DNA of 64,000 bases from Centroscyllium fabricii (taxonomy: Eukaryota): contig JBNRSN020000020.1 of NCBI GenBank assembly GCA_051313645.2, positions 20,088,001-20,152,000 on the forward strand, in the 5' to 3' direction. Made by a program: the position numbers and the translations under genes. Positions within the stretch are counted from its first letter, which is position 1, and each line of letters opens with the position of its first letter. Shown here piece after piece: positions 1-62,894 of the stretch. The notes under the pieces are model-generated. The model was given only the letters and a program-made list of their open reading frames with translations. It did not search any database and was not told the DNA's origin.

Positions 1-528
1 CCACCCTGCAGCCGCCCACATACCTGCCTGGAGACCTACCATTCCTTCAGATGTTAGCATGCCAAGTACTATCCCTGGAGTTCTGTGGGGAGCAATGTTC
101 CCTTCAAGCAGTGTGGCTGCGTAGCTCTCTGGACCTCCCACGCAGGGGGCTCACCGGCTTTACAATGAGGAAACATTGCGCAGGTGCAGTATTTTGAATG
201 GGCATGCTGCATGGCCCCCCGAAAATTAACGGCAACATTGGTAGGAAGATGCCCAATTCAAGGGCTCTTCTAATGCTATTTCCTAGTCTGGGATGACCGT
301 TCCTCTGGTTTTCCCTCCCCAAGTCACGGGGAAGTGGCCAGCCTTTGTTCAGTAGTTGCTTATCGTGGTAAAGTCAAGCTAGGAAACTCATTGGATGAAA
401 GATAACAGGCGCGTACCCATATCTAAGCATTCACAGAGGTCCAGCTGGCTGTATTACTATAATAATAATGTTTTATTAGACAGGACCATCTTCCTCTGGA
501 CTTGCATGTGAAAGAAACCAAGTTTTTA

Positions 529-3500
529 AAATTCATTCCTGGGTTGTGTGTGTCGCTGGCAAGGCCCAGCATTTATTGCCCACCCTTGTTTGCCCTTGAG
601 AAGGTGGTGGTGAGCCGCCTTCTTGAACCACTGCAGTCCGTGTGGTGAAGGTACTCCCATTGTGTTATTAGGGAGGGAGTTCCAGGATTTTGACCCATCG
701 ACGATGAAGGAACAGCGATATATTCCCAAGTTAGGATAGTGTGGAACTTGGAGGTGGCGGTGTTTCCCATGCACCTGTTGCCCTTGTCCTTCTAGGTGGA
801 AGAGGTCACGGGTTTGGGGGGTGCTGCCGAAGAAGCCTTGGTGAGTTGCTGCAGTGCATCTTGCAGATGGTACACACTGCAGCCACGGTGCACCAGTGGT
901 GGAGGGAGTGAATGTTTAAGGTGGTGGATGGGGTGCCAATCAAACGGGTTGCTTTGATCTGGATGGTGTTGAGCTTCTTGAGTGTTGTTGGAGCTGCACT
1001 CATCCAGGCAAGCGGAGAGTATTCCATCACAGTCCTGACTTGTGCCTTGTAGATGGTGGAAAAGCTTTGGGGAGTCAGGAGGTGAGACACTCGCCACAGA
1101 ATACCCAGCCTCTGACCTGCTCTTGTAGCCACAGTATTTATGTGGCTGGTCCAGTTAAGTTTCTGGTCAATGAGGAGCCCAGGATGTTGATGTTGGGGGA
1201 TTCAGCGATGGCAATGCTGTTGAATGTCAAGGAGCGGGGGTTAGGCGCTCTCTTATCGGTGATAGTCATTTCCTGGCACTTGTGTGGCATGAATGTTACC
1301 TGCCACTTATCAGCCCAAGCCTGAATGTCATCCAGGTCTTGCTGCATGCGGGCATGGACTGCTTCATTGTCTGAGGAGTTGTGAATGGCACTGAACACTG
1401 TGCATCATCAGTGAACATCCCCATTTCTGACCTTATGATGGAGGGACGGTCACTGATGAAGCAGCTGAAGATGGTTGCACCTATGACACTGCCCTGAGGA
1501 ACTCCTGCAGCAACGTCCTGGGGCTGAGTTGATTGGCCGCTAAAAACCACAACCATCTTCCTTTGTGCTAGGTATGACTTCAGCCAGTGGAGGGTTTTTC
1601 CTCCGATTCCCATTGACTTCAGTTTTACTCGGGCTCCTTGGTGAAACACTTGGTCAAATGCTGCCTTGATGTCAAGCGCAGTCACTCTCACCTCACCTCT
1701 GGAATTCAGCTCCTTTGTCCATGTTTGGACCAAGGCTGTAATGAGGTCTGGAGCTGAGTGGCCCTGGCGGAACCCAAACTGAGCACTGGTGAGTAAGTGC
1801 CACTTGATAGCACTGTCAACACCACATTCCATCATTTTGCTGATGATTGAGAGTAGACTGATGGGGCGGTAATTGGCCGGATTGGATTTGTCCTGTTTTT
1901 TTGTGGACAGGACATACCTGGGCAGTTTTCCACATTGTCGGGTAGATGCCAGTGTTGTAGCTGTACTGGAAGAGCTTGGCTAGAGGCGCGGCTAGTTCTG
2001 GAGCACAAGGCTTCAGCACGACAGCCGGGATGTTGTTGGAGTGCACAGCCTTTGCTGTATCCAGTGCGCTCAGCCATTTCTTGATATCACGTGGAGTGAA
2101 TCGAATTGGCTGAAGACTGGCTTCTGTGATGGTGGGGACCTCAGGAGCAGGCCGATATGGATCATCCACTCGGCACTTCTGGCTGAAGATGGTTGCAAAC
2201 GCTTCAGCCTTGCCTTTTGTACTCATGTGCTGGGCTCCACCATCATTGTGGATACTCATGGAGCCTCCTCCTCCAGTTAGTTGTTTAATTGTTCACCACC
2301 ATTCAAGACTGGATGTGGCAGGACTGCAGAGCTTTGATCTGATCCGTTGATTGTGGGATTGCTTAGCCCTATCTATAGCATGCTGCTTCCGCTGTTTAGC
2401 ATGCATGTAGTCCTCTGTTGCAGCTTCCCCAGGTTGGCATCGCATTTTTAGGTATGCCTGGTGCTGCTCCTGGCATGCTCGTCTACACTTATCATTGAAA
2501 CCGGGTTGGTTGTCTGGCTTGAAGGTAATGCCAGGCCATGAGGTTACAAATTGTGGTGGAATACAATTCTGCTGCTGCTGATGGCTCACAGCGCCTCATG
2601 GAAGCCCAGTTTTGAGCTGCTAGATCTGTTCTGAATCTATCCCATTTAGCACAGTGGTAGTGCCACACAACACGATGGAGGGTGTCCTCAGTGTGAAGAC
2701 AGGACTTCGCCTCCACAATGACTGTGCGGTGGTCACTACTACCAATACTGTCATGGACAGATGCATCTGCGACAGGTAGATTGGTGAGGACAACTATGTT
2801 TTTCTCTCACCACCTGCTGCAGGCCCAGTCTGGCAGCTATGTGCTTCAGGAGTTGGCTAACTCAGTCAGTAGTGGTGCTGCTGAGCCACTCTTGGCATAT
2901 TCTGTGCCCTTGTTACCCTCTGTGCTTCTTTCAAGTAGTGTTCAACATGGAGGGGTACTGATTCATCAGCTGAGGGAGGGTTCCTTGCCCATGCTTAACC
3001 TGAAACCATGTGACTTCATGGGGTCCGGAGTCAATGTTGAGGACTCCCAGGGCCACTCCCCCCCTCTGTGTACCACCTCTGGTGGGTCTGGTCCTGCTGG
3101 TGGGACAGATGGAGGAGTCTGGGACCTTGGCTGAAAGGTATGATTCTGTGAGTATGACTATGTCAGGCTGTTTTGCTTGACTGGTCTGTGGCTCAGCTCT
3201 CCCAATTTTGGCACAAGTCCCCAGTGTTGACGAGGAGGACTTTATAGGGTCGACTGGGTTTTGTCGTGCCTGAAGCCGAGTGGTCTTTTTATTGTTATTT
3301 CTGTTTATTATTTAAACTGAGAAGCTTGCTGGGCCATTTCAGAGTCAACCACGTTGCTGTGGATCTGGAGCCAGACTGGGTAAGGACGGCAGATTTCCTT
3401 CCCTAAAGGACATGAGTGAACCAGATGGGTTTTCAAGACAATCTTTCATGGTCATCATTAGCTTTATTTTTAATTCTAGATTAATTTAATTAACTGAATT

Positions 3501-3607
3501 TAAATTCCCCAGCTGCCGTGGTGGGATTTGAACTTCTGTCTCGCGGATCATTGGTCCAGGCCTCTAGAATACTAGCCCAGGGACATTACCACTTTGCTAC
3601 CGTTCCC
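529..3607 (-). mobile_element. Near full-length, degraded APE-RT non-LTR retrotransposon (CR1/L2-group, Zenon/Crack-like) with tRNA-derived 5' head and no ORF1
   Basis: RT motifs QFGFR, ALDIKAAFD, GVPQGSV in ORF 1296..1835; APE N-terminus (KLGELSHR..PDIVILTESYL) at about 3130-3240; A/B-box head at about 3520-3607. Confidence 0.85.
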
Positions 3608-3735
3608 TTAAAGTAGCACAGAACCACCAGTGAGGGATATGTGTGAACAAAGTATTTGAATGCGGCTGTGATCCGAACAATGTCTCCAGCCTCTGCTCAC
3701 CATGGATCGCCAGGAAGTACTTCCATTAATGTTCT

Positions 3736-4133
3736 GGGCGGCACGGTGGCACAGTGGTTAGCATTGTTGTCTCACAGCACTGGAGACCCGGGTTCAAATC
3801 CAGCCTCGGGTGACTATCTGTGTGGAGTTTGCACATTCTCCCCGTGTCTGCGTGGGTTTCCTCCGGGAGCTCCGGTTTCCTCCCACAGTCCAAAGATGTG
3901 CGGGTTAGGTTGATTGGCCATGATAAATTGACCCTTAGTGTTAGGGGGATTGAATACGTGGGGATAGGGTGGGATATGTGTCGGTGTAGGCTCGATAGGG
4001 ATCAAGGGATATGGGGAGAGGGCAGGGACAGGGTGCTGGGTTTGGATGATTAGCCATGATCTCATTGAACAGCGGAGCAGGCTCGAAGGGCCGAATGGCC
4101 TACTCCTGCTCCTAGTTTCTATGTTTCTATGTT
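3736..4133 (+). mobile_element. HE1-type V-SINE (tRNA head, V domain, CR1/HER1 3' tail)
   Basis: A box tggcacagtgg, B box ggttcaaatcc, V domain gtgtggagtttgcacattctcccc...cccacagtccaaaga, (tttctatg)n tail. Confidence 0.9.
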
Positions 4134-6009: not shown

Positions 6010-7235
6010 AAAATTCATTCCTGTGATGTGAGCGTTGCAGGCAAGGCCAGCATTTATTGCCCATGCCTAATTGCCCTCGAGAGGGTGGTGGTGAGCCGCC
6101 TTCTTGAACTGCTGCAGTCCGTGTGGTGAAGGTGCTCCCACAGTGCTGTCAGGGAGGGAGTTCCAGGATTTTGACCCAGCGACGATGAAGGAACAGCGAT
6201 ATACATAGAAACATAGAAGATAGGAGCAGGAGTCGGCCATTCGGCCCCTTGAGCCTGCTCTGCCATTCAATGAGATCATGGCTGATCATCCAAACTCAGT
6301 ACCCCGTACCTGCCTTCTCCCCATATCCCTTGATCCCTTTAGCTCTAAGAATTATACCGAACTCCTTCTTGAATATATTTCATGACTTGGCCTCAACTAC
6401 ATTCTGTGGTAGAGAATTCCACAGGTTCACTACTCTCTGGGTGAAGAAATTCTTCCTCATCTCTGTCCTGAATTGCCTACCCCTTCTCCTTAGACTGTGC
6501 CCCCTGCATCTGGACTCTCCGACCATCGGGAACATTCTTCCTGCATCTAGTTTGTCCAGACCTGTCAGAATTTTATAAGTTTAGATGAGATCCCCTCTCA
6601 TCCTTCTAAACTCCAGCGAGTATAAGCCCAATCGACCCAATCTCTCCTCATACGTCATTCCTGCCATCCCAGGTATCAGCCTTGTGAACCTTCGCCGAAC
6701 TTCTTCCATGGCAAGAACGTCCTTCCTCAGATAAGGCGACCAAAACTGCACACAGTACTCCAGGTGCGGTCTCAACAAGGCCCTGTACAACTGCAGCAGG
6801 ACATCCTTGCTCCTGTACTCAAACCCTCTCGCTATGAAGGCCAACATACCATTTGCCTTCTTCACCGCCTGCTGCACCTGCATGTGTACCTTCAACGACT
6901 GGTGCACAAGAACAGCCAGGTCTCGTTGCACTTCCCCGTCTCCCAATCTGTTTCCATTCAGATAATAGTCTGCCTTTCTGTTTTTGACAGTCAGGATGGT
7001 GTGTAACTTGGGAGAGGAAGTTGGAGGTGGTGGTGTTCCCATGCGCCTGCTGCCCTTGTCCTTCTAGGTGGAAGAGGTCGCGGGTATGGGAGGTGCTGCC
7101 GAAGAAGTATTGGCGAGTTGCTGCAGTGCATCTTGTAGATGGCACACACTGCAGTCACGGTACGCCGGTGGTGGAGGGAGTGAATGTTTAAGGTGGTGGA
7201 TGGAGTGCCAATCAAGTGGCCTGCTTTGTCCTGTT
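6010..7235 (-). mobile_element. 3' fragment of the 529-3607 LINE family, interrupted by CR1
   Basis: Colinear with 530-960 on both sides of the CR1 insertion. Confidence 0.85.
6202..6990 (-). mobile_element. CR1 LINE 3' fragment
   Basis: ORF 6581..7042 with [19 protein letters not shown]; catagaaa tail. Confidence 0.9.
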
Positions 7236-8004: not shown

Positions 8005-9530
8005 GTACCCACCCTCCCGCCCTGTATCCACCCCTCCCACCCCTGTATCCACTCCTCCTCCCCTGTATCCACCCCCTACACATCCTCCCTCCCCCGTATC
8101 CACCATCCTACCCACCCTCCCCCCCTGTAAGATAAGATAAGATAAGATTCAATTTATTGTCATTGTAAAGTGAACATACACAAAACAACGAAATGCAAAC
8201 ATGCAATCTCCCAAATTATTAAAATGTCCTTTAGTCCCAGTCTGATCCATTCCATCCCACCAGGACCACCCGGCGCTGCAGCCACGATGCGCCCGGTGCC
8301 CGGCCACGCAGGCCCTGGCGCTCCGGCCACGCAGCTCCCGGCCCTCGACGGCCTCGCAGCTCCCGGGCCTCGCAGCTCTCAGCGCCCGACGGCCTCGCAG
8401 CTCTCAGCGCCCGACGGCCTCGCAGCTCCCGGGCCTCGCACCCCTCCCACCCCTGTATCCACCCCTCCCACCCCTGTATCCACCCCTACCCACCCTCCCA
8501 CCCCCTGTATCCACCCCTCCCACCCTGTATCCACCCCTCCCCCCCGTATCCACCCTCCCCCCCTGTATCCACCCCTCCCACCCCTGTATACACCCCTACC
8601 CACCCTCCCTCCCCCTGTATCCACCCCTCCCACCCTGTATCCACCCCTCCCCCCCTGTATCCACCCTCCCCCCCTGTATCCACCCCTCCCACCCCTGTAT
8701 CCACCCCTACCCACCCTCCCTCCCCCTGTATCCACCCCTCCCCCCGTATCCACCCTCCCCCCCTGTATCCACCCCTCCCACCCCTACCCACCCTCCCGCC
8801 CTGTATCCACCCCTCCCCCATATCCACCCCTCCCACCCCTGTATCCAACCATACACACCCTCCCCGTGTATCCACCCCTCCCCCCCTGTATCCACCCTCC
8901 CTCCCCCTGTATCCACCCCCTGCACACCCTCCCCCCCCTGTATCCACCATCTACCCATCCTCCCTCCCCCTGTATCCACCCCCTACCCACCCTCATTCCC
9001 CCTGTATCCACCATCTACCCATCCTCCCTCCCCCTGTATCCACCATCTTACACACCCTCCCTCCCCCCCTGTATCCACCCCTCCCACCCCTGTATTCACC
9101 CCCTACCCACCCTCCCCCCCCGTATCCACCCCTACCCACCCTCCCCCCCCGTATCCACCCCTACCCATCCTCCCTCCCCCTGTATCCACCCCCTACACAC
9201 CCTCCATCCCCCTGTATCCACCCCCTACACACCCTCCATCCCCCTGTATCCACCCCCTGCACACCCTCCATCCCCCTGTATCCACCCCCTACCCACCCTC
9301 CCTCCTCCTGTATCCACCCCCTACCCACCCTCCCTCCTCCTGTATCCACCCCCTACACACCCTCCATTACCCTGTATCCACCCCTACACACCCTCCCTCC
9401 TCCTGTATCCACCCCCTACCCACCCTCCCTCCTCCTGTATCCACCCCCTACCCACCCTCCCTCCCCCTGTATCCACCCCCTACACACCCTCCCTCCGTCT
9501 CTATCCACCCCCGTACCTACCCTCCCTCCG
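8005..9530. repeat. C-rich irregular minisatellite (core cccctgtatccacccc), interrupted at about 8128-8440
   Basis: Dozens of tgtatccacc cores separated by C-runs; G4-prone on the minus (transcribed) strand. Confidence 0.95.
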
Positions 9531-9895
9531 CTCTGTACTCAATGTCCGACTCACTCACCTTGCTCTCTATATCGTCACAGCTCTCTCTTTCCTGGGATCT
9601 ATAACAAGCTCTTCGTCCAGTGACTTTCTCACTCTTACCCCCAGATGAAAGGTTGTGAGCTGCACTGTAACACTCGCGGTAGAGCTCTTAAGTTACACTG
9701 TAAAACTTTGGATTACACTGTAGCACTGTGCTATAAGGATCTCGGTTTCCCTTTCCTATTTATCCAGGGTTAGTGAACACCATACAGAAGACCCTTCAGG
9801 TTACTTGGGCTGCCAAGGATCTGGTTGGATATAGGGTGCTGGAATTCCTTCCAGAGCAGGACATGGAGTGTAAACAGGATTTGAATTGTTCTCAC

Positions 9896-12814: not shown

Positions 12815-13110
12815 TGCATTCATTCTTAGGATATGGGTGTCATTGGCAAGGCCGGCATTTACTGCCCATCCTAAATGCTCTTGTGAAGGTTGTGAGCTGC
12901 CTTCTTGAACCGCAGCAGTCCATGTGGTGAAGGTGCTCAAACAGTGCTGTTAGGGAGGGAGTTCCAGGATTTTGACCCGGCGACGATGAGGAATTGGCGA
13001 TATATTTCCAAGTCAGCATGATGTGTGACTTGGAGGGGAACTTGGAGGTGGTGGAGTTCCCATGCGCCTGCTGCCCTTGTCCTTCCAGGTGGCGGGGGTT
13101 GCGAGTTTGT
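12815..13110 (-). mobile_element. 3' fragment of the 529-3607 LINE family
   Basis: Colinear with about 530-815. Confidence 0.8.
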
Positions 13111-13239: not shown

Positions 13240-14975
13240 GGTAGGGGTGTGTGGGGGGCACCAGCTCTCTGTGGTGGATGGGGGTGTGTGGGGGGTACCA
13301 GCTCTCTGTGGTGGATGGGGGTGTGTGGGGGATACCAGCTCTCTGTGGTGGATGGGGGTGTGGGGGGTACCAGCTCTCTGTGGTGGATGGGGGTGTGTGG
13401 GGGGTACCAGCTCTCTGTGGTGGATGGGGGTGTGGGGGGTACCAGCTCTCTGTGGTGGATGGGGGTGTGTTGGGTGTACCAGCTCTCTGTGGTGGATGGG
13501 GGTGTGGGGTACCAGCTCTCTGTGGTGGATGGGGGTGTGGGGGGTACCAGCTCTCTGTGGTGGATGGGGGGGTGTGGGGGGTACCAGCTCTCTGTGGTGG
13601 ATGGGGCATCATGTGTGGGGTGTACCAGCTCTCTGTGGTGGATGGGGGTGTGTGGGGGGTACCAGCTCTCTGTGGTGGATGGGGCATCATATGTGGGGTG
13701 TACCAGCTCTCTGTGGTGGATGGGGGTGTGGGGTACAGGCTCTCTGTGGTGGGGGGGGCATCATGTGTGGGGGGTACCCGCTCTCTGTGGTGGATGGGGG
13801 GGTGTGGGGTGTACCAGCTCTCTGTGGTGGATGGGGGTGTGTGGTGTACCAGCTCTCTGTGGTGGATGGGGCATCATGTGTGGGGGTTACCAGCTCTCTG
13901 TGGTGGATGGGGGTGTGGGGGGTACCAGCTCTCTGTGGTGGATGGGGGTGTCAGCTCTCTGTGGTGGATGGGGGTGTGTGGGGGGGTACCAGCTCTCTGT
14001 AGTGGATGGGGGGGTGTGGTGTACCAGCTCTCTGTGGTGGATGGGGGGGTGTGGGGGGTACCAGCTCTCTGTGGTGGATTGGGGTGTGTGGGGGGTACCA
14101 GCTCTCTGTGGTGGATGGGGGTGTGTGGGGGGTACCAGCTCTCTGTGGTGGATGGGGGTGTGTGGGGGGTATCAGCTCTCTGTGGTGGATGGGGGTGTGT
14201 GGGGGGTACCAGCTCTCTGTGGTGGATGGGGGTGTGTGGGGGGTACCAGCTCTCTGTGGTGGATGGGGGTGTGTGGGGGGGTACCAGCTCTCTGTGGTGG
14301 ATGGGGGTGTGTGGTGTACCAGCTCTCTGTTGTGGATGGGGGGGGGGGGGTGTACCAGCTCTCTGTGGTGGATAGGGGTGTGTGGTGTACCAGCTCTCTG
14401 TGGTGGATGGGGCATCATGTGTGGGGGGTACCAGCTCTCTGTGGTGGATGGGGGTGTGTGGGGGGTACCAGCTCTCTGTGGTGGATGGGGGTGTGTGGGG
14501 GGTACCAGCTCTCTGTGGTGGATGGGGGTGTGTGGGAGGTACCAGCTCTCTGTAGTGGATGGGGGTGTGTGGGAGGTACCAGCTCTCTGTGGTGGATGGG
14601 GGTGTGTGGGAGGTACCAGCTCTCTGTGGTGGATGGGGGTGTGTGGGGGGTACCAGCTCTCTGTGGTGGATGGGGGTGTGTGGGAGGTACCAGCTCTCTG
14701 TGGTGGATGGGGGTACCACTCTCTGTGGTGGATGGGGGTGTGGGGTACCAGCTCTCTGTGGTGGGGGGGGTACCAGCTCTCTGTGGTGGATGGGGGGGTA
14801 CCAGCTCTCTGTGGTGGATGGGTGTGTGGGGGGTACCACTCTCTGTGGTGGATGGGGGTGTGTGGGGGGTACCACTCTCTGTGGTGGGGATGGGGGTGTG
14901 TGGGGGGTACCACCCTCTGTGGTGGGGATGGGGGTGTGTGGGGGGTACCACTCTCTGGGGGGGGTGCATCATGTG
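13240..14975. repeat. G-rich minisatellite, about 35-39 bp unit gtaccagctctctgtggtggatgggggtgtgtggggg
   Basis: More than 40 tandem copies with variable G-run lengths and an occasional gcatcat variant. Confidence 0.97.
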
Positions 14976-16962: not shown

Positions 16963-17035
16963 CCATCTCCCTCCTCTGTCCCACCAGTGCAGGAAGTGCT
17001 GTATTCTGGGAGTTTTTTATTTACTTTTTTTTTTT

Positions 17036-17489
17036 AATTCATTGATGGGATGTGGGCGTCACTGGCTGACTAGGCCTGCATTTAGTGCCCATCCCTAATT
17101 GCCCTTGAGAAGATGGTGGTGAGCCGCCTTCTTGCTTATTGTTTTTCGTAGCGGTTGTTTACAATTGAGTGGCTTACTGGGCCATTTCAGAGGGCATTAA
17201 GAGTCAACCACATTGCTGTGGGTCTGGAGTCACATGTAGGCCAGACCAGGTAAGGACGGCAGATTTCCTTCCCTAAAGGACATTAGTGAACCAGATGGGT
17301 TTTTGCAACAATCGACAATGGTATCATGGTCGCCATTACTAAGACTAACATTTAATTCCAGAATTAAATTGAATTGAATTTAAGTTCCACCAGCTGCCGT
17401 GGTGGGATTTGAACCCATATCCTCAGAGCATTTGACTGAGCCTCTGGCTTACTAGTCTAGTGACATAACCACTACGCCACCGCCTCCCC
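17036..17489 (-). mobile_element. SINE-like internal-deletion derivative of the tRNA-headed LINE
   Basis: A box tggcgtagtgg and B box ggttcaaatcc, then the LINE 5' region fused to about 100 nt of LINE 3' tail (junction near 17134). Confidence 0.85.
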
Positions 17490-17990: not shown

Positions 17991-18022
17991 AGTTCTGCAA
18001 GAGTGTTGAACAATGTGTCAGC

Positions 18023-18685
18023 TGTGGCTCACTGGTAGCACTCTCTCCTCTGAGTCAGAATGGTTGTGGGTTCAAGTCTCCAGAGGTTTGAGCATATAAT
18101 GGAGGCTGACACTCCAGTGCAGTACTGAGGGAGTGCCACACTGTCAGAGATGCCGTCTTTCCGATGAGATATTAAACTGAGGCCCCATCTGCCCTTTGAG
18201 GTGAAAGTAAAAGTGTGGTGTATGTGTACACAGTGCACTATATTGTGAAGCCCGGAACTTCTTGCTGTGTAAGAATACATTGTATTGTAAAGGAGTGAGC
18301 TCCCAGTATAAATAAGGGGCAGAGCCACAATCCTCACTTCTCCTGATGACGACCACCAGTAAAGACATGTTCATTTTATCTTTGGTGTCCTTGTATTATT
18401 ATATGATATAATACAAACACAATAAAAAGATCCCATGGCACTATTTCGAAGAAGAGCAGGAGAGTTTTCACTGGTGTCCTGGTCAATATTTATCCCTAAA
18501 CTAACATCATGAAAACAGATTATCTGGTCATTATCACATTGCTGTTTGTGGGAGCTTGCTGTGTGCAAATTGGCTGCCGTGTTTCCTACATTACAAAAGT
18601 GTCTACACTTCAAAAAGTACTTCATTGGCTGTAAATCGCTTTGGGACATCCTGAGGTTGTGAAAGGCGCTATAGAAATGCAAATT
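18023..18685 (+). mobile_element. Deu-domain SINE (SacSINE1/AmnSINE1-like) with L2-type tail, interrupted by a solo LTR
   Basis: tRNA head, gtaaaagatcccatggcactatttcgaagaagagcagg Deu core, gaaaggcgctatagaaatgcaa tail. Confidence 0.85.
18214..18424 (+). mobile_element. Solo LTR nested in the Deu-SINE
   Basis: Starts tgtgg, 5-bp TSD aaaag, tataaata and agtaaa signals. Confidence 0.7.
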
Positions 18686-31564: not shown

Positions 31565-32920
31565 TTTATTCACTCATGGGATATGGCTGTCATAGCAAGC
31601 CCAGCATTTATTGCCCATCTCTAATTGCCCTTGAGAAGGTGGTGGTGAGCTGTCTTCTTGAACCACTGCAGTCGGTGTGGTGAAGGTGCTCCCACAGTGC
31701 TGTTAGGGAGGGAGTTCCAGAATTTTGACCCAGTGACGATGAAGGAACGGCGATATACTTCCAAGTCAGGATGGTGTGTGACTTGGAGGGGAACTTGGAG
31801 GTAGTGGTGTTCCCATGCGCCTGCTGCCCTTGTCCTTCTAGGTGGGAGAACGCAGGTTTAGGATGTGCTGCCGAAGAAGCCATGGCGAGTTGCTGCAGTG
31901 CTTATAAGAACATAAGAAATAGGAGCAGGAGTAGGCCAATCACCCCTCAAGCCTGCTCAGCCATTTAACAAGAGCATGGCTGATCTGATCCTAACCTCAA
32001 TTTTATTTTTTACTCTCCATCCCGCCCAAACCCATGTGGCAAAAAACCAGATAAAAAACCCAGTGGCCAATTTGGGAGAAAAAATCTGGGAAATTCCTCT
32101 CCGACCCATCTAGGCGATCGAAAACTGGTCCAGGAGATCACATGGCCGGTCTGAACCTAGCCTCACGTCCACTTACCTGCCCGCTCACCATAACCCCTAA
32201 TTCCCTTTACTTCCAGGAAACTGTCTATCTCTGTTTTAAATTTATTCAATGTAGTAGCTTCCACGGCTCTCTGGGGCAGCAAATTCCACAGCCTCATCTC
32301 AGTTTTGAAATGGCAGCCCCTTATTTTAAGATTATGCCCCCTAGTCCTAGTTTCACCCACCATTGGGAACATCCTCACCGCATCCACCCGATCAAGCCCT
32401 CTCACAATCTTATATGTTTCAATAAGATCGCCTCTCATTCTTCTGAACTCCAATGAGTAGAGGCCCAATCTACTCAGCCTCTCATCATATGTTAGCCCCC
32501 TCATCCCCGGAATTAACCTAGTGAACCTTCTTTGCACTGCCTCGAGAGCAAGTATGTCCTTCTTGTAGTTGGTACACACTGCAGCCACGGTACGCCGGTG
32601 GTGGAGGGAGTAAATGTATAAGGTAACGGATGGGGTGCCAATCAAGCGGGCTGCTTGTCCTGGATGGTATCGAGCTTCTTGAGTGTTGTTGGAGCTGCAC
32701 TCATCCAGGGAAGTGGAGAGTATTCCATCACACTCCTGACTTGTGCCTTGTAGATGGAGGAAAGGCTTTAGGGAGTCAGAAGCTGAGACACTCACTGCAG
32801 AATTCCCAGCCCCTGACCTGCTCTTGTAGCCACAGTATTTACGTGGCTGGTTCAGTTATGTTTCTGGTTAATGTTGACCCCCACGATGTTGATGGTGGGG
32901 GGATTCAACAATAGTAATGC
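31565..32920 (-). mobile_element. 3' part of the 529-3607 LINE family with nested CR1 (about 31905-32563)
   Basis: Colinear with 530-1230 outside the CR1. Confidence 0.85.
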
Positions 32921-35162: not shown

Positions 35163-35970
35163 GGGGTGAATTTTCCAGGAGGTGCAGGGAATTGTCAGGT
35201 TTGTCAGGTTTCTGACCCGAATGTTAAAGGGCCTGGGAGCCCCATGCAATTTTGGCTCAATTGGCCAATTAATTCCCCGCGTGTGGGAACCCCCGGCCAA
35301 TTGATTGTTTTAAGACAGAAAGTGGGCGGGGTTTCTGGTGTGTAACCACCAGACCCATGATTGACAGCTCTAACTAGTCTGTTCTGTTTCTTTCAGTTGA
35401 TTCAGTGGATTGTGACATCACAAAGCACTGTCAACAGAAGCTAACCACAAGTCGATGATTGACAGCTCTAAGTGGTTTGTTTCACTGGCAGCCTCCTGAC
35501 AGCTAGGAAAGGCCTATCTGTCAATCATTAGAAAGCAGCTGGAAAATAAGTTTTTGAAAGGTTTTTTCCCACTAATCTTGATCACCCTAGGGAGACAGTT
35601 AGACCTCCAGCATGCTAGAGGCCAGGGAGGCATTCTGCTACAGGTGTTTCAATGCCTTGAAGGTGAAAGTCAGTAAACTGAATGTGTCCCCGCTAGGTTT
35701 CGCCAGCGTGGTTTCAGGCTGGCCGGTTATGGGTGGGAAGCGCTTCAAAATCACAGGGAGCCCTTAAAATGGCATTATACATGCCAATTAAGGGTCCCTA
35801 ATGAGCCTAACGACCATCCATGCTGGTTGCCGACGGGAAAGATTCGGGGTGGGTAGACACGGCGGCGGGAAATCACAAAGCGGCGGGGATCCTGCGGGGG
35901 CGGGTGTGGTCAGGACCCCCCGGTTTTGCAATTTTGTGGCCCGCCTCACGGCGCAATGAAAATTTACCCC
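35163..35970. mobile_element. PIF/Harbinger-like MITE, about 800-bp family, orientation B
   Basis: TIR ggggtgaattttc / gaaaatttacccc, flanks taa/tca; homologous to 48222, 58195 and 62040. Confidence 0.8.
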
Positions 35971-36756: not shown

Positions 36757-37138
36757 TTTATTCATTCACAGGATGTGGGCGACGCCAACAAGGTCTGCAT
36801 TTATTCCCCATCCCTAATTGCCCGCGAGCAGCCTTCTCGAATAAATGACTTGCTGGGCCATTTCAGAGGGCAGTTAAGAGTCAACCACATTGCTGTGGGT
36901 CTGGAGTCCTTAGCCAGACCAGGTAAGGACATTAGTGAACCGGATGGGTTTTTATGACAATCCAGTAGTTTTATGGTCACCATTAAATGATACTAACTTT
37001 TTATTCCAGATTTATTTAATTAATTTAATTTAAACTCCCCAATTGCCATAGTCAGATTTGAACCCACATCTCTGAGATCCATTAGTCCAGGCCTTTGGAT
37101 TACTAGTCCACTAACATAACCACGATGCTATCGTACCC
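36757..37138 (-). mobile_element. Second SINE-like deletion derivative of the tRNA-headed LINE
   Basis: Head and 5' region fused to about 85 nt of 3' tail at a different junction (about 36840). Confidence 0.8.
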
Positions 37139-38246
37139 CACGTGAGTAACATAAATCACCTGGGCACGGTTCACCAATCAATCTAGTGAAAGTCAGGAAA
37201 GTTCAGAATAATTAATTGATAGCTTTTTCTTGGAGATGTGTATGTCCTTGCCTACACTGAACAATGAGAAGATGCCTTTGCTAACCTGGCCACCACCCTA
37301 AACATCGGGACCACGCAGGGGGAGATAAGCAAAGACCTGCAGGCACCCCCCAATCTTTTGATAAGATGGCCTGAAAGTGCAGGAATGGCTTGTATTTGAT
37401 GTCACATGTGGCATGATTTGGGATACCGGCGTATTAGCAATTAAATAGGTGTGAGGCAACGAGGAAGCATGATGAAGATACACTGAATAACTGGTCTCAG
37501 ACATGCCCAGCCACACTGAGACCATTACAGGAAATAGTCAATGTGGCTCAGGAGAGTAAGTACATATACTGTATCACTACTGATTCAAACTATTTAATCA
37601 TGTTCCGAAAATTCAAGTGGAGTGAAGATATAAAATTGGAAATTGTAAATTCAAGGTGAACCAACCCCAAAATTGAAATTAAAGTGATCCACAATATGGA
37701 TAACGGTGAAAGACTGCTGGAGGATCTTTTAAGTCCAGGTGCTAACTTTTTTAACCTTGTTTACCAGTCAATGTATAACAATATTCATAATATTTTTGAT
37801 ATGTTATGTAAAATAAATGGGTGGAGATCTGCATGACAGAATAGATCGAGATAGATACATGATGCTGATGAAATAATAGGCCACAGGGTGTGTGTGTGTC
37901 GGGGGGGGGGGGGGGGGGGGGGGACGGACATACTATAAGGAAAGACTGTCTTGAAGTCTGCTAATATTATACTGTGATTGAATTATCTTTTTATATTGTA
38001 ATAAGAGTGAGGAAGTTTACATCAATTCAGGTGCAGTGACTACTGAACTGTTGAATTAAAACTGACCTTAATAGTCAGTTTAGACAATACAGTAAACAAT
38101 ACAGTAAACCTAATTAAAGGATGCGTATATTTCAGAGAGCTTTAATTGGTTGATAAGTTCTGCAGAAGGGAACATCATGCCTTTCAGAAGCAGGAGATTG
38201 GTATGGAATGGCACCGATTTACAATTGGAAGTTTCACAGTAGGTTG

Positions 38247-38640
38247 CGGCACGGTGGCACAGTGGTTAGCACTGCTGTCTCACAGCACTGGAGACCCGGG
38301 TTCAAATCCAGCCTCGGGTACTATCTGTGTGGAGTTTGCACATTCTCCCTGTGTCTGCGTGGGTTTCCTCTGGGTGCTCCGGTTTCCTCCCACAGTCCAA
38401 AGATGTGCGGGTTAGGTTGATTGGCCAGGATAAATTGACCCTTAGTGTTAGGGGGATTGAATATGTGGGGTTACAGGGATAGGGTGGGATATGCAGGTTC
38501 GATAGGGATCGAGGGGCATGGGGACAAGGCAGGGACAGAGTACTGGGTTTGGATGACCAGCCATGATCTCATTGAATGGCGGAGCAGGCTCGAAGGGCCG
38601 AATGGCCTACTCCTGCTCCTATCTTCTATGTCTATGTCTA
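38247..38640 (+). mobile_element. HE1-type V-SINE
   Basis: Colinear with 3736-4133. Confidence 0.9.
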
Positions 38641-39099
38641 TAACTTGAAATGGTCAGAAATCATCGATACAGACAGGTAGAAAAGCTGCCTTTATTCATT
38701 CATTAGGAGGAAGGCCTTGAGCCCTTACTTGCAGATAAGCACCTGCCTGAGAAAGAGCATAGATCTGGAAAGTTAGGGAGTGTAACAAGTTAGGCAGTTA
38801 CGGATCTATGGCTGTGAGGACAGGACAATCAAATCAGCGTTGAATGATAACTATGCAATGTAACAATGAAACATGCAAATTATCATGCAGAAGGGGTGAA
38901 AAAAGGCATAAAAAGTGGATGTTGGAACAGATTCTCTGTTTTGTTGTGTCTCTGTTAAGTGTATGTTTAATTTTTATATGCTTAATAAATCTGTGCCATC
39001 TGACAATTAATGTTGTGAACCGTATTATTTTGAGGAGCGAATTATAACTAAGAACACCCCATCACTAACAGTACCAGCTGGTACGGCTCTCTAGGAACG

Positions 39100-44971: not shown

Positions 44972-45448
44972 TGTTTTATGAGATGTGGGCGTTGCATTTA
45001 TTGCCCATCCCTAATTGCCCTTGAGAAGGTGGTGGTGAGCCGCCTTCTTGAAGCGCTGCAGTCCGTGTGGTGAAGGTGCTCGCACACTGCTGTTCGGGAG
45101 GGAGTTCCAGGATTTTGACCCAGCGACGATATACTTCTAAGTCAGGATGGTGTGTGACTTGGAAGGGCTGGTGTTCCCATGCGCCTGCTACCCTTATCCT
45201 TCTAGGTGGACACAAGTCCCCAGGACTTTGCAGGGTCGACTGGGCTGGGCGTGCCGTTGTCGTGTCCATAGCTGGTGCTGAGGTCGATGCCGGGTGGTCC
45301 GTCCAGTTTCATTTTTTTAATTCTTTTTCGTAGCGGTTTGTCACAATGGAGTGGCTTCCGTGGTGGGATTTAAACTCACATTTCTGGATCATTAGTCCAG
45401 GACTCTGGATTACTAGCCCAGTGACATTGCCACTATGCTACCATTCCC
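44972..45448 (-). mobile_element. Third, doubly deleted derivative of the tRNA-headed LINE
   Basis: Head (45358-45448), ORF-start region (45209-45357) and 3' tail (44972-45208). Confidence 0.8.
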
Positions 45449-45579
45449 TCTGGTGTGTGATGAATTCACACTTGACGTAAATGATCACAATATTGTTTCA
45501 GCAGGTTTATTGACAAATCACCAGCAGTGAGTACTGGGTAATTCTGGGGTCAGATATATATATATATCACAGCCAGAGC

Positions 45580-48221: not shown

Positions 48222-48950
48222 GGCCAAAATTTCATCTCCTCGTGAGGCGGGGTTTTCGGCGGGTCGGACGTCAAAATAGCGGAACTGGTGGGTCACGACC
48301 ACCCCCGCCGGATCTCCGCTGCTTTAGCATTTCCCCCCGCCCTGTCTCCCCGTCCCGAATCTTTCCCGCCGGCGGCCGACGGGGATGCTTGGTCAGCTCA
48401 TTAAGGGCCCTTAATTGGCATGTGTAATGCCATTTTAAGGGCCCTTAGCAATTTTCAACCCCTTCCCACCCTAACCCCGCCATCCTAAAACCCCGCTGGT
48501 GAAACCCAGCGGGATCACAGTGGTGTTGCTAACTTACTCCTTCAAGGTGTTGAAGGACCTGGAGCAAAATGCTTCCCTGGCCTTCAACACTCTGGAGGAG
48601 TAAGTCACTCCATTGGGTTAAGACCAGCTGTGGCCAAAAACTTAGAAAACTTACCTTCCTAGATTTACTGACAGCCGGCACCTAGCTGTCAAAGATTCGG
48701 AGCCCGCCCGCCCACCTGTCACTCAACAGCACTTGGCTTCTCCCATTGGTTTCACTCCACTGTGATGTCACTATGAGCCCTGGAATTGGCGACTGGACTG
48801 CTGCACTTACCACAGGCACCCCGCACATGGGGATTTAATTGACTGATTAGGCGAAAATAGTGTGGGCTTCCCAGGCCCTTGGCTGGGCGGGTCAGGAATC
48901 CGCACCGACCAATCCCCGCCAGGTTCCCACACCTCCAGGAAAATCCCCCC
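48222..48950. mobile_element. PIF/Harbinger-like MITE, orientation A
   Basis: Colinear with 58195-58975; ends gaaaatcccccc; flanks taa/tta. Confidence 0.8.
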
Positions 48951-51005: not shown

Positions 51006-51940
51006 CCATCGGCGTGAAATTGGCGCTCTAGTGCCGGCCCATTAGCGCCCGAAAATGGGCGTAAGCGGTTTTAGCGCGGAGCGCAAAATTTGCCAGACGA
51101 ACGCCGTCGGCGCTAACTGTTGCGGCCTGCTGCTGGGCGCACGTCAATAACCTGCTGACTTCCTCGTGCAACGCCCGTCCCCAGGGCTGCACCGGAAACT
51201 CACCACCGAAGACTCTCCCAGTAGATCAGGAGACGACTCTCCCAGTAGATCAGGAGACGACTCTCCCAGTAGATCAGGAGAAGACTCTCCCAGTAGATCA
51301 GGAGACGACTCTCCCAGTAGATCAGGAGACGGCTCTCCCAGTAGATCAGGAGAAGGCTCTCCCAGTAGATCAGGAGAAGGCTCTCCCAGTAGATCAGGAG
51401 AAGGCTCTCCCAGTAGATCAGGAGACGACTCTCCCAGTAGATCAGGAGACGACTCTCCCAGTAGATCAGGAGAAGACTCTCCCAGTAGATCAGGAGATGA
51501 CTCTCCCAGTAGATCAGGAGAAGACTCTCCCACTAGATCAGGAGAAAACTCTCCCAGTAGATCAGGAGAAAACTCTCCCAGTAGATCAGGAGAAGACTCT
51601 CCCACTAGATCAGGAGAAGACTCTCCCACTAGATCAGGAGAAGACTCTCCCACTAGATCAGGAGAAGACTCTCCCACTAGATCAGGAGAATACTCTCACA
51701 GTGGATCAGGAGAAGACTCTCCCAGTAGATCAGGAGAAGACTCTCCCAGTAGATCAGGAGAAGACTCTCCCAGTAGATCAGGAGAAGACTCTCCCAGTAG
51801 ATCAGGAGAAGACTCTCCCACTGGATCAGGAGAAAACTCTCCCAGTGGATCAGGAGAAGACTCTCCCAGTGGATCAGGAGAAAACTCTCCCAGTAGATCA
51901 GGAGAAGACTCTCCCATTCGGTCAGAAGACTCTCCCAGTA

Positions 51941-52349
51941 TAGAAACATAGAAACACAGAAGATAGGAGCAGGGGTAGGCCATTCGGCCCTTCGAACCTG
52001 CTCTGCCATTCGATGAGATCATGGCTGATCATCCAAACCCAGCACCCTTTCCCTGCCCTCTCCCCATATCCCTCGATCCCCATCGAGCCTGCACCAACCC
52101 ATATCCCACCCTATCCCCGAAACCCCACATATTCAATCCCCCTAACACTAAGGGTCAATTTATCCTGGCCAATCAACCTAACCCGCACATCTTTGGACTG
52201 TGGGAGGAAACCGGAGCACCCGGAGGAAACCCACGCAGACACGGGGAGAATGTGCAAACTCCACACAGATAGTACCCGAGGCGGGAATTGAACCCGGGTC
52301 TCTAGTGCTGTAAGGCAACAGTGCTAACCACTATGCCACCGTGCCGCCC
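51941..52349 (-). mobile_element. HE1-type V-SINE, copy 1 in the array
   Basis: Reverse complement of the 3736-4133 type. Confidence 0.92.
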
Positions 52350-53093
52350 AGTAGATCAGGAGAAGACTCTCCCAGTAGATCAGGAGAAGGCTCTCCCAGT
52401 AGATAAGGAGAAGACTCTCCCATTAGATCAGGAGGATTCTCTCCCAGTAGATCAGGAGGATTCTCTCCCAGTAGATCAGGAGAAAACTCTCCCAGTAGAT
52501 CAGGAGAAGACTGTCCCAGTAGATCAGGAGAAGACTCTCCCAGTAGATCAGGAGAAGACTCTCCCAGTAGATCAGGAGAAGACTCTCCCAGTAGATCAGG
52601 AGAAGGCTCTTCCAGTAGATCAGGAGAAGGCTCTTCCAGTAGATCAGGAGAAGACTCTCCCAGTAGATCAGGAGAAGACTCTCCCAGTAGATCAGGAGAA
52701 GGCTGTCCCAGTAGATCAGGAGAATACTCTCCCAGTAGATCAGGAGAATACTCTCCCAGTAGATCAGGAGAAGACTCTCCCAGTAGATCAGGAGAAGGCT
52801 CTCCCAGTAGATCAGGAGAAGACTCTCCCAGTAGATCAGGAGAATACTCTCCCAGTAGATCAGGAGAAGACTCTCCCAGTAGATCAGGAGAATACTCTCC
52901 CAGTAGATCAGGAGAAGACTCCCCCAGTAGATCAGAAGACGACTCTCCCAGTAGATCAGGAGAAGACTCTCCCAGTAGATCAGGACAAGGCTCTCCCAGT
53001 AGATCAGGAGAAGACTCTCCACTAGATCAGGAGAAAACCCTCCCAGTAGATCAGGAGAAGACTCTCCCATTCGGTCAGAAGACTCTCCCAGTA

Positions 53094-53502
53094 TAGAAAC
53101 ATAGAAACACAGAAGATAGGAGCAGGAGTAGGCCATTCGGCCCTTCGAACCTGCTCCGCCATTCGATGAGATCATGGCTGAACATCCAAACCCAGTATCC
53201 TTTCCCTGCCTTGTCCCCATATCCCTCGATCCCTATCGAGCCTGCACCGACACATATCCCACCCTATCCCCGTAACCCCACATATTCAATCCCCCTAACA
53301 CGAAGGGTCAATTTATCATGGCCAATCAACCTAACTCGCACATCTTTGGACTGTGGGAGGAAACCGGAGCACCCGGAGGAAACCCACGCAGACACGGGGG
53401 GAATGTGCAAACTCCACACAGATAGTACCCGAGGCTGGATTTGAACCCGGGTCTCTAGTGCTGTAAGGCAGCAGTGCTAACCACTATGCCACCGTGCCGC
53501 CC
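53094..53502 (-). mobile_element. HE1-type V-SINE, copy 2 in the array
   Basis: Same junctions as copy 1. Confidence 0.92.
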
Positions 53503-55245
53503 AGTAGATCAAGAGAAGACTCTCCCAGTAGATCAGGAGAAGGCTCTCCCAGTAGATCAAGAGAAAACTCTCCCAGTAGATCAGGAGAAGACTCTCCCAG
53601 TAGATCAGGAGAAGGCTCTCCCAGTAGATCAGGAGAAGGCTCTCCCAGTAGATCAGGAGAAGGCTCTCCCAGTAGATCAGGAGAAGTCTCTCCCAGTAGA
53701 TCAGGAGGAGACTCTCCCAGTAGATCAGAAGTCTCCCCCAGTAGATCAGGAGAATTCTCTCCCAGTAGATCAGGAGAAGGCTCTCCCAGTAGATCAGGAG
53801 AAGGCTCTCCCAGTAGATCAGGAGAAGGCTCTCCCAGTAGATCAGGAGAAGGCTCTCCCAGTAGATCAGGAGAAGGCTCTCCCAGTAGATCAGGAGAAGG
53901 CACTCCCAGTAGATCAGGAGAAGGCTCTCCCAGTAGATCAGGAGACTCTCCCAGTAGATCAGGAGAAGACTCTCCCAGTAGATCAGGAGAAGACTCTCCC
54001 AGTAGCTCAGGAGAAGGCTCTCCCAGTAGATCAGGAGAAGGCTCTCCCAGTAGATCAGGAGAAGGCTCTCCCAGTAGATCAGGAGAAAACTCTCCCAGTA
54101 GATCAGGAGAAAACTCTCCCAGTAGATCAGGAGAAGGCTCTCCCAGTAGATCAGGAGAAGGCTCTCCCAATAGAGTAGACACTTTTCTGTGTCGAAAGGG
54201 TCCCATTTTAGGCCCAATCTGACTTCATAATTCACCTTTTTGTTAATATTCACAAAGTTCACAAAGACAAATACAGTACAGGCAGGCCATTCGGCCCATC
54301 TAGCTCATCCATCTGCAGAAACCTACAATCCACCCATCTATGCGTCCAACTTTCACTTGGCGATTCCAGGCTTTTGCCCTCCAGGAGTTTCTTACTTCAA
54401 GGTATGAAAAGTTTAAGGTGCATGATACTGAGCACGCTCAAATCCAAGATTCCCCACCAAGGTGGTGAATTCCCCACATGAATTCTCTGGATCGTGTACC
54501 CATGATACACGTAAGAGTGACAATGTGCCCAGAGAAGTATGGAGAAATGAAATGGCTGTAGAATAGAGCTTATCTGATTGATTTTATGTTTTAAATGAAA
54601 TACCTTTCTTAGAATTACTATGACATATAATAATGCACATTAGAAACATAAAACCTTTGTTACGATATGTATAACCTTAGTTAAAAAGACAGCAGGCCGA
54701 GAAGCAAAGCATGATGATAAAATTAAGCCAACATTATGTTAACTGCAAGAATAGTGCTGAGGTAGTGTCGTTTTTCTGTTGTATTAAAAACAAGAAGCCA
54801 GTGAAGAACAAATATTACTTATATTTTTAAGTAGAATTGAGTGTTTTCAATACCTTCCATCCCTTATCGCTGAAGTTTCAGACCAGTCTAGATAATGGGC
54901 TATGGGAAAGGCAAGAGACATCTATAGTAATTTGTGAGAAGTCTAACTATGGAAAATTTCACAGTGAAGCTCACAGCACAAAAAGGGAGGGAATCATAGA
55001 CCGTACTATTGAAGGTCAGAATGGTGAGACAGCCCAAGCAGCTGCAAGTTGCTGTGTATTTTGAAAGGAAAAAAAGATATAAAGGAACAGCTATTGAGCA
55101 CTGAGGGCAGCACGAAACCAGGGGAAGGGAAACTTCAGTCAACAGAACACAGCAAGACTGAAGAAAAGAGACAACGCAGCAGTCACCCGGTGAGCACTGT
55201 ACTGGGGTTCCAAGGAACGGATTGCGACTATCATCCTGTTAAGTA

Positions 55246-56522: not shown

Positions 56523-56757
56523 AATATATCTGTACCAGGAGTGGTCTACTATAGTCACGGACAATTTAAATATACATTTTGGATCTTGCAAAGATTGCAA
56601 ATTTTACATGGTTATATATAAAGCTAAGAGTCACACTGATTGAAGCTGCTGTACTGGTTTGATGATGTATGATTCATTCTGTGGTGCAGTTAGACACTGT
56701 GATGGGTGGATCACAGATTTCTCTGGATGGATGAGCTACATGGGCAGAGTTTTTTTT

Positions 56758-57062
56758 AATTCTCGAGATGTGGGTGTCGCTAGCCAGGCCAGCATTTAAT
56801 GCGCGTCTCTAGTTGCCCTTGAGAACGTGGTGGTGAGCCGCCTTCTTTAACCACCACACTCCGTGTGGTAAAGGTGCTCCCACAGTGCTAATAAGTAGGG
56901 AATTTCGGGATTTTGACCCAGTGGCGCTGAAGGAACAGCGATCTATGTCCAAGTTAGGATGCTGAGTGACTTGCAGGGGAACTTGTAGGTGGTGGTGTTC
57001 CCATGTACCTGCTGCCCTTGTCCTTCTAGGTGGTGGAGGTTGTGGGTTTGAGAGGTGCTATT
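56758..57062 (-). mobile_element. 3' fragment of the 529-3607 LINE family
   Basis: Colinear with about 530-830. Confidence 0.8.
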
Positions 57063-58084: not shown

Positions 58085-59163
58085 TTTCTAAGGATAAGGG
58101 GTAGGCCAATTAGGACAGAGATGAGGAGGAATTTCTTCACCCAGAGGGTGGTGAACCTGTGAAATTCTCAACCACAGAATGTAGTTGAGACCAAGGGGGG
58201 GATTTTCATGTCACCGTGAGGCGGGGTTTTCGGTGGGTCGGCCGACAAAATAGCGCAACCAGTGGGTCACGACACCCCCCGCCGGATCCCTGCCCCGGAT
58301 ACATTTTCCCCCACCCTGATTCCCCGCCCTGAAACCTTCCCGCCGGCGGGGATGGGTTGGCACCTCGTTAAGGGCCCTTAATTGGCATGTTTAATGCCAT
58401 TTTAAGGGCCCTTAGCCATTTTGAGCCGTTTCCCACCCATTCTCTGTCACCTTAAACCTCGCTGGGTGAAACCCAGCGGGAGCACAGCGTTGGTCATTAC
58501 TTTCTCCTTTAAGGTGGGGAAGGACATGCTGCCAAATGCTTGGCATGCCTCCAGCACCTTAGAGGAGTAAGTCACTCCATGGTGGGTGCACCAGCTGTGA
58601 GCAAAAACGGAGAAATCTCAGCTTTGCACATTTCCTCACAGCGGTGCCGAGCTATCAAGGATTCGGAGCCCGCCCGCCCACCTGTCAGTCACCAGCACTT
58701 GACCTTTCCCATTGGTTCCACTCGACTGTGATGTCACAGTGGAGTGTTTCCATGGGAACTGTCAACAACCAGTGCTGGAACTGTCAATCAAAGTGCTCGA
58801 GCCCCGCTGCAGCCCGACTCGTTTGAGTCAATTACCACCAGCTGCCACAGGCGGGGATTTAACAACTCAATTAAATTAAAATTGCGTGGGCTTCCCAGGT
58901 CTTTGGTCAGGCGGGACAGGGACCCGCCCCGAACAATCCCCACCAGATTCCCGCACTTATGGCGAAATCACCCCCTAAGTCACTAAATATATTCAAGAAG
59001 GAGTTAGATAAATTTCTTAGAGTTAAAGGTATCAAAGGATATGGGGAGAAGGCAGGTACGGGGTACTGAGTTTGGATGATTAGCCATGATCTGATTGAAT
59101 GGCGGAGCAGGCTCGAGGGGCCGAATGGCCTACTCCTACTCCTATCTTCATTGTTTCTATGTT
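58085..59163 (+). mobile_element. CR1 3' end split by a Harbinger MITE
   Basis: gtagttgagaccaa|...|taagtcactaaatatattcaag reconstitutes the CR1. Confidence 0.85.
58195..58975. mobile_element. PIF/Harbinger-like MITE, orientation A
   Basis: G-run/C-run TIRs and 3-bp TSD caa/taa inside CR1. Confidence 0.85.
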
Positions 59164-61865: not shown

Positions 61866-62039
61866 CTTTCTTTTTCTATCTAATACACCAGTTTTAATAT
61901 TACATTCCACTCATTTAAAATTAACTCTTCTGGTCCAATTTGCCTTACTTTGAAGTGAAAGGAGTAAGGATTGCAATGCTGCACCACAACCTTGAAGTGT
62001 CATAGTCAGTGATAAGAACATCTACTCTTCCCAGACATT

Positions 62040-62835
62040 GGGGGGGATTTTCCTGGAGGTGCAGGAAGCTGGCGGGGATTGGTCGGGTCGGGTTTCTGTC
62101 GCCCGCCCAAGGGCCTGGAAACCCGACTCAATATTCCTTGCATTAATCAATTAAATCCCCGCCTGCGGGGAGCCCCTGGTAATTGACTCAATCGAGTCGG
62201 CAATCAGGGAGCTCCAGCGGGCTGCGAGGAGCTTGACAGACAGTTCCAAGGACTGTTTGTTGACTGTTCCCATGGAAACACTCCACTGTGACATCACAGT
62301 GGAGTGCAACCAATCGGAAAGGCCAAGTGCTTTGACAAACAGGTGGCCGGGCGGGCTGCAAATCTTTGACAGCTAGGGACCGTCTGTCAATGGAGCTGGC
62401 ATGGTAAGATTTTTAAGTTTTTTTCCCACAGCTGGTCTTCAAGGGAGTCACTTACACCCCCAGGGTATTGAAGGCCTGGAAAGCATTCTGCTCTAGGTCC
62501 TTCAATACCTTGAAGGAGAAAGTGACCACGGCCACTGTGCTCCCGCTGGGTTTCACCAGCGGGGTTTCAGGATGGCGGGGTTTGGGTGGGAAGGGGTGGA
62601 AAATAGGTGAGGGCCCTTAAAATGGCATTATCCAGACCAATTAAGGGCCTTCATTTACTTTAACGAGCATCGCCGCCAGCGGCGCGTGGGAAAGATTCGG
62701 GACGGCAGGAAACGGCGCCTGAAACTTACAAGCCGGCTTAGATCTGGCGGGGGGGAGGTCGTGACCCCCGGTTCCGCGATTTTAGGCCCCGCCCCACTGG
62801 ATCGCCGCCCTCACAGACCGAGGAAAATCCCCCCC
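62040..62835. mobile_element. PIF/Harbinger-like MITE, orientation B
   Basis: Perfect 15-bp TIR gggggggattttcct / aggaaaatccccccc; TSD att/att. Confidence 0.88.
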
Positions 62836-62894
62836 ATTGGTTCAGGCCATCCACTGCCTGCCACTCTCTCTACCCAGTGAATACTTAAGCCAGC

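Follow-up and report, generated by a model that had tools for sequence, protein, structure and literature searches.

Structure of the element

Near the beginning of the 64,000-nt stretch of Centroscyllium fabricii DNA analysed here (the window), the minus strand carries a decayed full-length LINE of the elasmobranch Zenon family, which opens with a tRNA-like head and closes with an A-rich tail (Table 1). The A and B boxes quoted in an earlier note on this DNA are both present on that strand. Head and UTR together take up 365 nt before APE begins at 3243. No stop-free stretch inside them is longer than 46 codons, so the main element has no ORF1; the note was right to see a short UTR followed by the APE N-terminus and RT with no room for ORF1. 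The APE domain begins with KVLL, then PDIVILTESY, and a profile of the N-termini of relatives matches both the latter motif (E 3e-4) and a later part of APE (E 2e-16). Both APE and RT are present in the right order and at the right spacing within the frameshifted copy. However, intact relatives of about 1000 aa align in pieces over 3182-773 in three frames, which means that this copy is dead, and its several frameshifts, stops and small deletions mean that the copy itself is not autonomous. At 3.1 kb and with coding sequence, the element is not the short, non-coding unit that a SINE would be.

Eight aligned tails in the window have A-rich ends, several of them decayed, which are of the poly(A) rather than the microsatellite type. 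A consensus 3' stem-loop is predicted over eight window tails; it is unproven, since just 1 of its 16 pairs shows two-sided change. No target-site duplications were evident by eye at four copies. At the other end of the element, the 5' UTR has no Rfam family match, its folding is not above that of shuffles (z -0.9), and a scan of metagenome contigs with a UTR motif gave no matches. Identity with MetaSINEs was considered and rejected: the 66-bp Meta-domain, which in MetaSINEs comes directly after the head, has a consensus unlike the UTR by eye, and a 15-nt Meta-domain motif had no match in any copy of the Zenon family, with four matches elsewhere against two expected.

Table 1. Zenon features in the window (positions are those of the window)
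Feature	Position	Strand	Remarks
Decayed full-length elasmobranch Zenon LINE	523..3608	minus	Begins with head and UTR; broken, presumably single APE-RT frame; A-rich tail
tRNA-like head	3512..3608	minus	D arm, anticodon arm, long extra stem-loop, T arm
A box of head	3589..3599	minus	tagcaaagtgg
Anticodon arm of head	3580-3564	minus	AGT at anticodon place
Long extra stem-loop of head	3560-3541	minus	
T arm of head	3537-3521	minus	
B box of head	3524..3533	minus	gttcaaatcc
5' UTR body and A-rich linker	3244..3511	minus	Without ORF1
APE endonuclease domain	2530..3243	minus	Frameshifts and deletions; upstream in-frame AUG absent
Reverse transcriptase core	1386..1892	minus	Pfam RVT_1, E 4e-23
Very short 3' UTR	523..590	minus	AATAAA, predicted stem-loop, A-rich tail; without T-rich tract
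5'-truncated copy	6010..7228	minus	Interrupted by other-LINE fragment, about 6204-6989
5'-truncated 3'-end copy	12818..13109	minus	
Short bipartite copy, SINE-like	17029..17487	minus	Head, UTR, linker and ~105 nt of 3' tail
5'-truncated copy	31568..32920	minus	Interrupted by other-LINE fragment, about 31905-32560
Short bipartite copy	36760..37138	minus	Head and UTR; 3' tail begins where that of the 17 kb copy does
Internally deleted copy	44972..45449	minus	Head joined to linker and first APE codons, then ~230 nt of 3' end
5'-truncated 3'-end copy	56756..57059	minus	

Other copies in the window

BLAST of the main element against the window identified three further head-bearing copies and four 5'-truncated 3' copies. 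The three with heads are short (380-480 nt) and non-coding. Those at 17487-17029 and 37138-36760 have a 3' tail of about 80-105 nt and no coding start, and on their own could be explained as a plain SINE next to a truncated LINE. The copy at 45449-44972 is missing the UTR body and retains the end of the UTR; as an independent junction of head to APE, it must derive from the LINE. The earlier note had the head joined to the same downstream sequence in all three, which is correct as far as the head is concerned, but the APE start is linked to it at 45449-44972 only. The coordinates 17036, 36757 and 44972 given for these copies in the earlier note are their 3' ends. Among the truncated copies, a fragment of another LINE has inserted into each of two Zenon 3' fragments, and this LINE was therefore active after these copies.

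The tRNA-like head

We scanned the window for pairs of A and B boxes, using consensus motifs with one mismatch permitted in each, and found 9 pairs compared with 0.13 expected from 30 shuffles. Four of the pairs are the Zenon heads, with 54-56 nt between the boxes, and the remaining five are the heads of other SINEs, in which the gap is 34 nt; both boxes are retained in all four Zenon heads of the window, set 20 nt further apart than those of the other SINEs. Each of the four can be drawn with a D, an anticodon, an extra and a T arm, and 80% of cells are paired compared with 31-42% for slid partners. The AGT at the anticodon place is Thr-like, and the long extra arm we take to be a Ser/Leu-like tRNA feature. 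In the extra arm there are three two-sided changes, all from one copy, and the shuffle control was not beaten (58 of 500).

No intact acceptor stem was seen by eye in the head, the heads alone fold no better than shuffles (z +1.5 to -2.0), ARAGORN did not call the decayed window heads as tRNAs, and Rfam gave no more than sub-threshold T-arm matches, with no tRNA call. A motif made of the anticodon arm and T arm, whose gap selects long-arm tRNAs by design, retrieved 21 viral loci, of which 19 are ARAGORN tRNAs of 84-90 nt. Of the 25 best phage BLAST matches listed for the head, 19 lie on the T arm of a tRNA, but at E values of 0.9-3. Overall, the head is very probably derived from a tRNA.

Family identity

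Assignment of the element to Zenon rests on its nucleotide match to a published consensus that Stuart et al. (2026, PMC13343379) placed in this family. Table S2 of that paper contains 10 Zenon consensus sequences, which we compared by eye over the first 400 nt of each. The main copy is approximately 90% identical to the SquAca_Zenon-1 consensus over the first ~135 nt. All seven shark and ray consensus sequences (2886-3314 nt, from five species, sharks and a stingray) start with the head and the UTR, and the UTR is near-identical among them, although in one of the seven the A-box region is partly deleted. Within the same 400 nt, the head is absent from all three non-elasmobranch consensus sequences (two from hagfish and one from coelacanth). 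Its presence at the start of seven of seven consensus sequences from five species indicates that the head has been copied along with the element, as the fixed 5' end of full-length copies. This, together with a second window copy in which the head is joined to where APE starts, bears out the view in the earlier note that the head is not a chance SINE landing. Of the autonomous LINE-SINE hybrid family that was also proposed there, the head stands as a fixed part of the family, whereas the 3608-523 copy is itself broken and not autonomous.

The closest named protein fragments are from devil ray, catshark and sevengill shark (69-82%), a sign that the host is an elasmobranch. Pieces of the Zenon LINE also appear in three predicted elasmobranch proteins (P0028, P0056 and P0149), one of which is named as a cystathionine beta-synthase-like isoform; these are probably exonised or mis-annotated repeats.

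Zenon has been reported in elasmobranchs, coelacanth and hagfish, in all cases without ORF1 and with poly(A), and the elasmobranch elements were previously missing from repeat repositories (PMC13343379). According to the same paper, Zenon makes up 4.4% of the spiny dogfish genome, 6.8% of that of the white shark and 0.7% in two rays, and a few intact ORFs are given in its Table S3. Because the absence of ORF1 is already a stated trait of all Zenon elements, the head alone is new. The word tRNA has no occurrence in the accessible text of PMC13343379, its supplement and its preprint, or in that of a whale shark preprint. A search of full-text literature, with Repbase and Dfam outside its scope, did not find a tRNA head described on shark Zenon. 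The novelty of this element is thus reduced, since the family is named, its consensus is published and its lack of ORF1 is known, but the head is nowhere described in the accessible parts of PMC13343379. We conclude that the head of elasmobranch Zenon is a real, family-wide and apparently unremarked feature of a known ORF1-less LINE family.

Relatives and origin of the head

We assembled a set of 80 loci with related RTs, many of which are without a 5' end. In 78 of them no box pair was found where the RT frame starts or upstream of it, and the pairs in the other two are mismatched and weak. ARAGORN, run on 53 of the 80 loci, found no tRNA, and none of the 80 had similarity to the UTR or tail (best E 0.07). 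The window RT is 44-49% identical to intact single-ORF relatives. In an RT tree of 50 rows, which includes no named Zenon, the window RT falls with single-ORF relatives in a group of 18 rows (81/99), where its branch is long. Named references for this tree were uninformative, with a name on 1 of 35 cluster members. L001 and L002, the full-length relatives closest to the element (43-45% in RT), each have a single ORF and a poly(A) tail; their 3' UTRs are T-rich and they carry no head. The head is therefore best read as an elasmobranch acquisition. One single-ORF relative, P0008, has a 2A-like GDIHPNPGP motif before the APE domain; none was seen in the shark element.

T runs on the sense strand

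The sense strand of the main element contains two internal T4+ runs in 3068 nt (0.65/kb), with 20.5% T. One of these is missing from a second window copy and the other appears to be missing in a catshark relative, judged from the protein alignment. No internal T4+ run is present in the eight remaining window copies or pieces (3047 nt, mostly overlapping the same parts). By comparison, 34 long-ORF relatives picked from the 80 loci have 1.7-15 T4+ runs per kb (median 8.9), a contrast that is inflated because the relatives are AT-richer, and other LINEs in the window have 26 runs in 7540 nt, counted on eight hand-picked and non-independent fragments. Long T runs are found in both UTRs of L001 and in the 3' UTR of L002, whereas the shark element has none.

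Dinucleotide shuffles gave an expectation of 2.9 T4+ runs against 3 observed with the tail included, and the observed/expected ratio is 0.47 in the main element against 0.49 in the lowest relative. The strand of the shark element is simply T-poor, and many LINE sense strands are A-rich. We regard the T runs as no more than suggestive of compatibility with Pol III.

Translation start

Traced upstream in the 45 kb copy, the APE frame passes through an Arg-rich stretch and meets a stop before any Met; the conserved AUG nearest to it belongs to a different frame. The stingray consensus gives the same 5' reading of the APE frame by eye. There are 7 and 11 AUGs upstream of the APE motif in two copies, none of them in frame, which is a poor fit with cap-dependent scanning. 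From these reading frames we infer that the Zenon ORF may use non-canonical initiation. Pol III promoter reporters give protein once TTTT is removed (PMC8223928), and non-canonical initiation has been discussed for LINE ORF2 generally (PMC3894237).

Comparison with known elements

The published elasmobranch Zenon elements (SquAca_Zenon-1/2/3 and the CarCar_, RhiTyp_, ScyCan_ and HypSab_Zenon-1 consensus sequences; PMC13343379) have the same 5' sequence, no ORF1, APE and RT, and an A tail. We found no structural difference between these and the window element, except that the window copy is decayed; the head is in the published data but undescribed in the accessible text. Lepidopteran Zenon/Persaeus (PMC6740152) resembles the shark element in its single ORF, length of about 3.3 kb and poly(A) tail. 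Persaeus is a deleted bipartite derivative of Zenon that keeps the 5' UTR, the ORF start and the 3' end (PMC6740152), and the 45 kb copy is alike. However, Persaeus has neither tRNA homology nor a Pol III promoter (PMC6740152), and the short shark derivatives differ by their tRNA-like head, because of which they look like SINEs.

RTE-1_DAn and related elements (PMC5786205) provide a brief precedent for a LINE with a tRNA-like sequence, but they belong to the RTE clade, unlike Zenon. Bov-tA, AfroSINE, CoeSINE4 and WALLSI2 (Kojima 2018, PMC5786205) combine a tRNA head with LINE 5' and LINE 3' parts, like the short copies in the window. In those bipartite SINEs a template switch placed the head on a deleted LINE, and the donors reported in the accessible text of PMC5786205 are RTE and Vingi only. 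In sharks, on the other hand, an autonomous CR1-group LINE itself carries the head.

Proposed expression and spread of shark and ray Zenon

The anatomy, the family match and the fixed head established above leave the role of the head to be explained. LINEs normally use Pol II promoters, and tRNA heads define SINEs. We tentatively favour, with confidence a little short of even, the reading in which shark and ray Zenon is a single-ORF APE-RT LINE whose head would act as the internal Pol III promoter for the whole 3.3-kb RNA, and this RNA would be both translated and copied. In favour of Pol III are the intact A and B boxes, the retained cloverleaf with its long extra arm and the scarcity of T4+ runs on the sense strand. 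Somewhat more doubtful is the stronger claim that the family is autonomous and run by Pol III, that its T-poor, uncapped 3.3-kb RNA is translated without an in-frame AUG, that it has reached 4-7% of shark genomes, and that it gives birth to SINEs by plain deletion. Before the shark/ray split, an ancestral Zenon would have exchanged its 5' end for a tRNA-derived head of the SINE type. Because the sense strand is T-poor, Pol III would then read through it until it met a terminator at the tail or beyond. The uncapped RNA might be translated by a non-canonical start, whether non-AUG initiation, re-initiation or a -1 shift out of a short frame upstream, and the conserved UTR would probably help. 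The 3' stem-loop may be the binding site of the Zenon protein, which would insert the RNA by target-primed reverse transcription. Ready-made SINEs could then arise from Zenon by internal deletion, as at 44972-45449; the SINE-like copies at 17 and 37 kb may be either daughters of the LINE or the source of its head.

It is possible instead, in our view with a similar degree of doubt to that stronger claim, that the LINE captured the 5' end of a SINE and stayed a Pol II unit, with the head and UTR serving as an internal Pol II promoter or insulator and the A and B boxes mattering mainly for the short derivatives. LINEs are as a rule Pol II units, and the AATAAA and poly(A) tail kept by the family suit Pol II. 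Pol III is held to be weakly processive, which limits SINE length (PMC10886601) and counts against the Pol III reading, and the deficit of T4+ runs is not significant against shuffles. In addition, the title of a cited paper concerns Pol II transcription from Pol III promoters. The tRNA-like 5' end, however, lies exactly at the start of the element in seven of seven consensus sequences, with both boxes kept; there are many upstream AUGs with none in frame, and the shark element lacks the T-rich UTRs seen in its nearest relatives, all of which sit poorly with Pol II. The two polymerases might also divide the work, with Pol III making the RNA that is copied and the protein being supplied in trans from capped Pol II read-through of copies within host genes. 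The short non-coding copies were mobilised, 39% of Zenon-like sequence in the whale shark is intronic (whale shark preprint), and the stem-loop predicted in the eight window tails is the kind of signal that LINE proteins use in trans. We nevertheless consider this division unlikely, as retention of the ORF across sharks and rays would be easier to account for if the RNA that is copied is also the RNA that is translated. Trans use of a 3' stem-loop by the LINE protein is established for L2 of eel and zebrafish.

A chance landing of a SINE, or a one-off template switch, before a truncated LINE would make the published consensus sequences SINE/LINE chimeras. Two of the three short copies do resemble plain SINEs, having no coding start, and automatic extension with manual checks was used to make the published consensus sequences (PMC13343379). 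Yet the same junction is present in two independent window copies and in seven of seven consensus sequences from five species, which were built from 59 to 2313 long copies (in the families with legible counts, leaving out SquAca_Zenon-1). This explanation is already largely refuted, and we regard it as highly improbable.

The divide between LINEs and SINEs rests on the polymerase, with Pol II for coding elements and Pol III for short, non-coding ones. If the head of Zenon does act as a Pol III promoter, a coding family with a tRNA-type head that makes up several percent of shark genomes would break this rule. It would also offer an example from nature of a long Pol III RNA that is translated, and a path leading straight from LINE to SINE with no capture of a head. 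If Pol II is used, the head would still represent a promoter exchange not described before, in a family catalogued only recently, and a warning that annotation enters such heads as separate SINEs.

Other repeats in the window

We also found a tRNA-headed SINE in four 90%-identical copies (3735-4133, 38246-38642, 51945-52351 and 53098-53518), with 34 nt between the A and B boxes. This SINE is HE1/V-SINE-like. The four copies share an adjoining piece that matches the 3' ends of other LINEs, and one of them lies back to back with the Zenon head. Two are inside a 24-bp tandem array of about 124 copies (51208-54174), and their regular spacing there suggests higher-order duplication. A third type of SINE, which has its own A/B-box head and a second partial copy, is represented at 28860 (minus strand) and 18017-18624. 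Further tandem repeats include a GT-rich minisatellite of 37 bp in 48 copies (13244-14957) and a 32-bp array that is C-rich and strongly strand-skewed (8439-9537). Finally, a dispersed repeat family of 400-800 bp, whose members are 70-80% alike, lies at 35541-35949, 48230-48950, 58190-58981 and 62034-62841.
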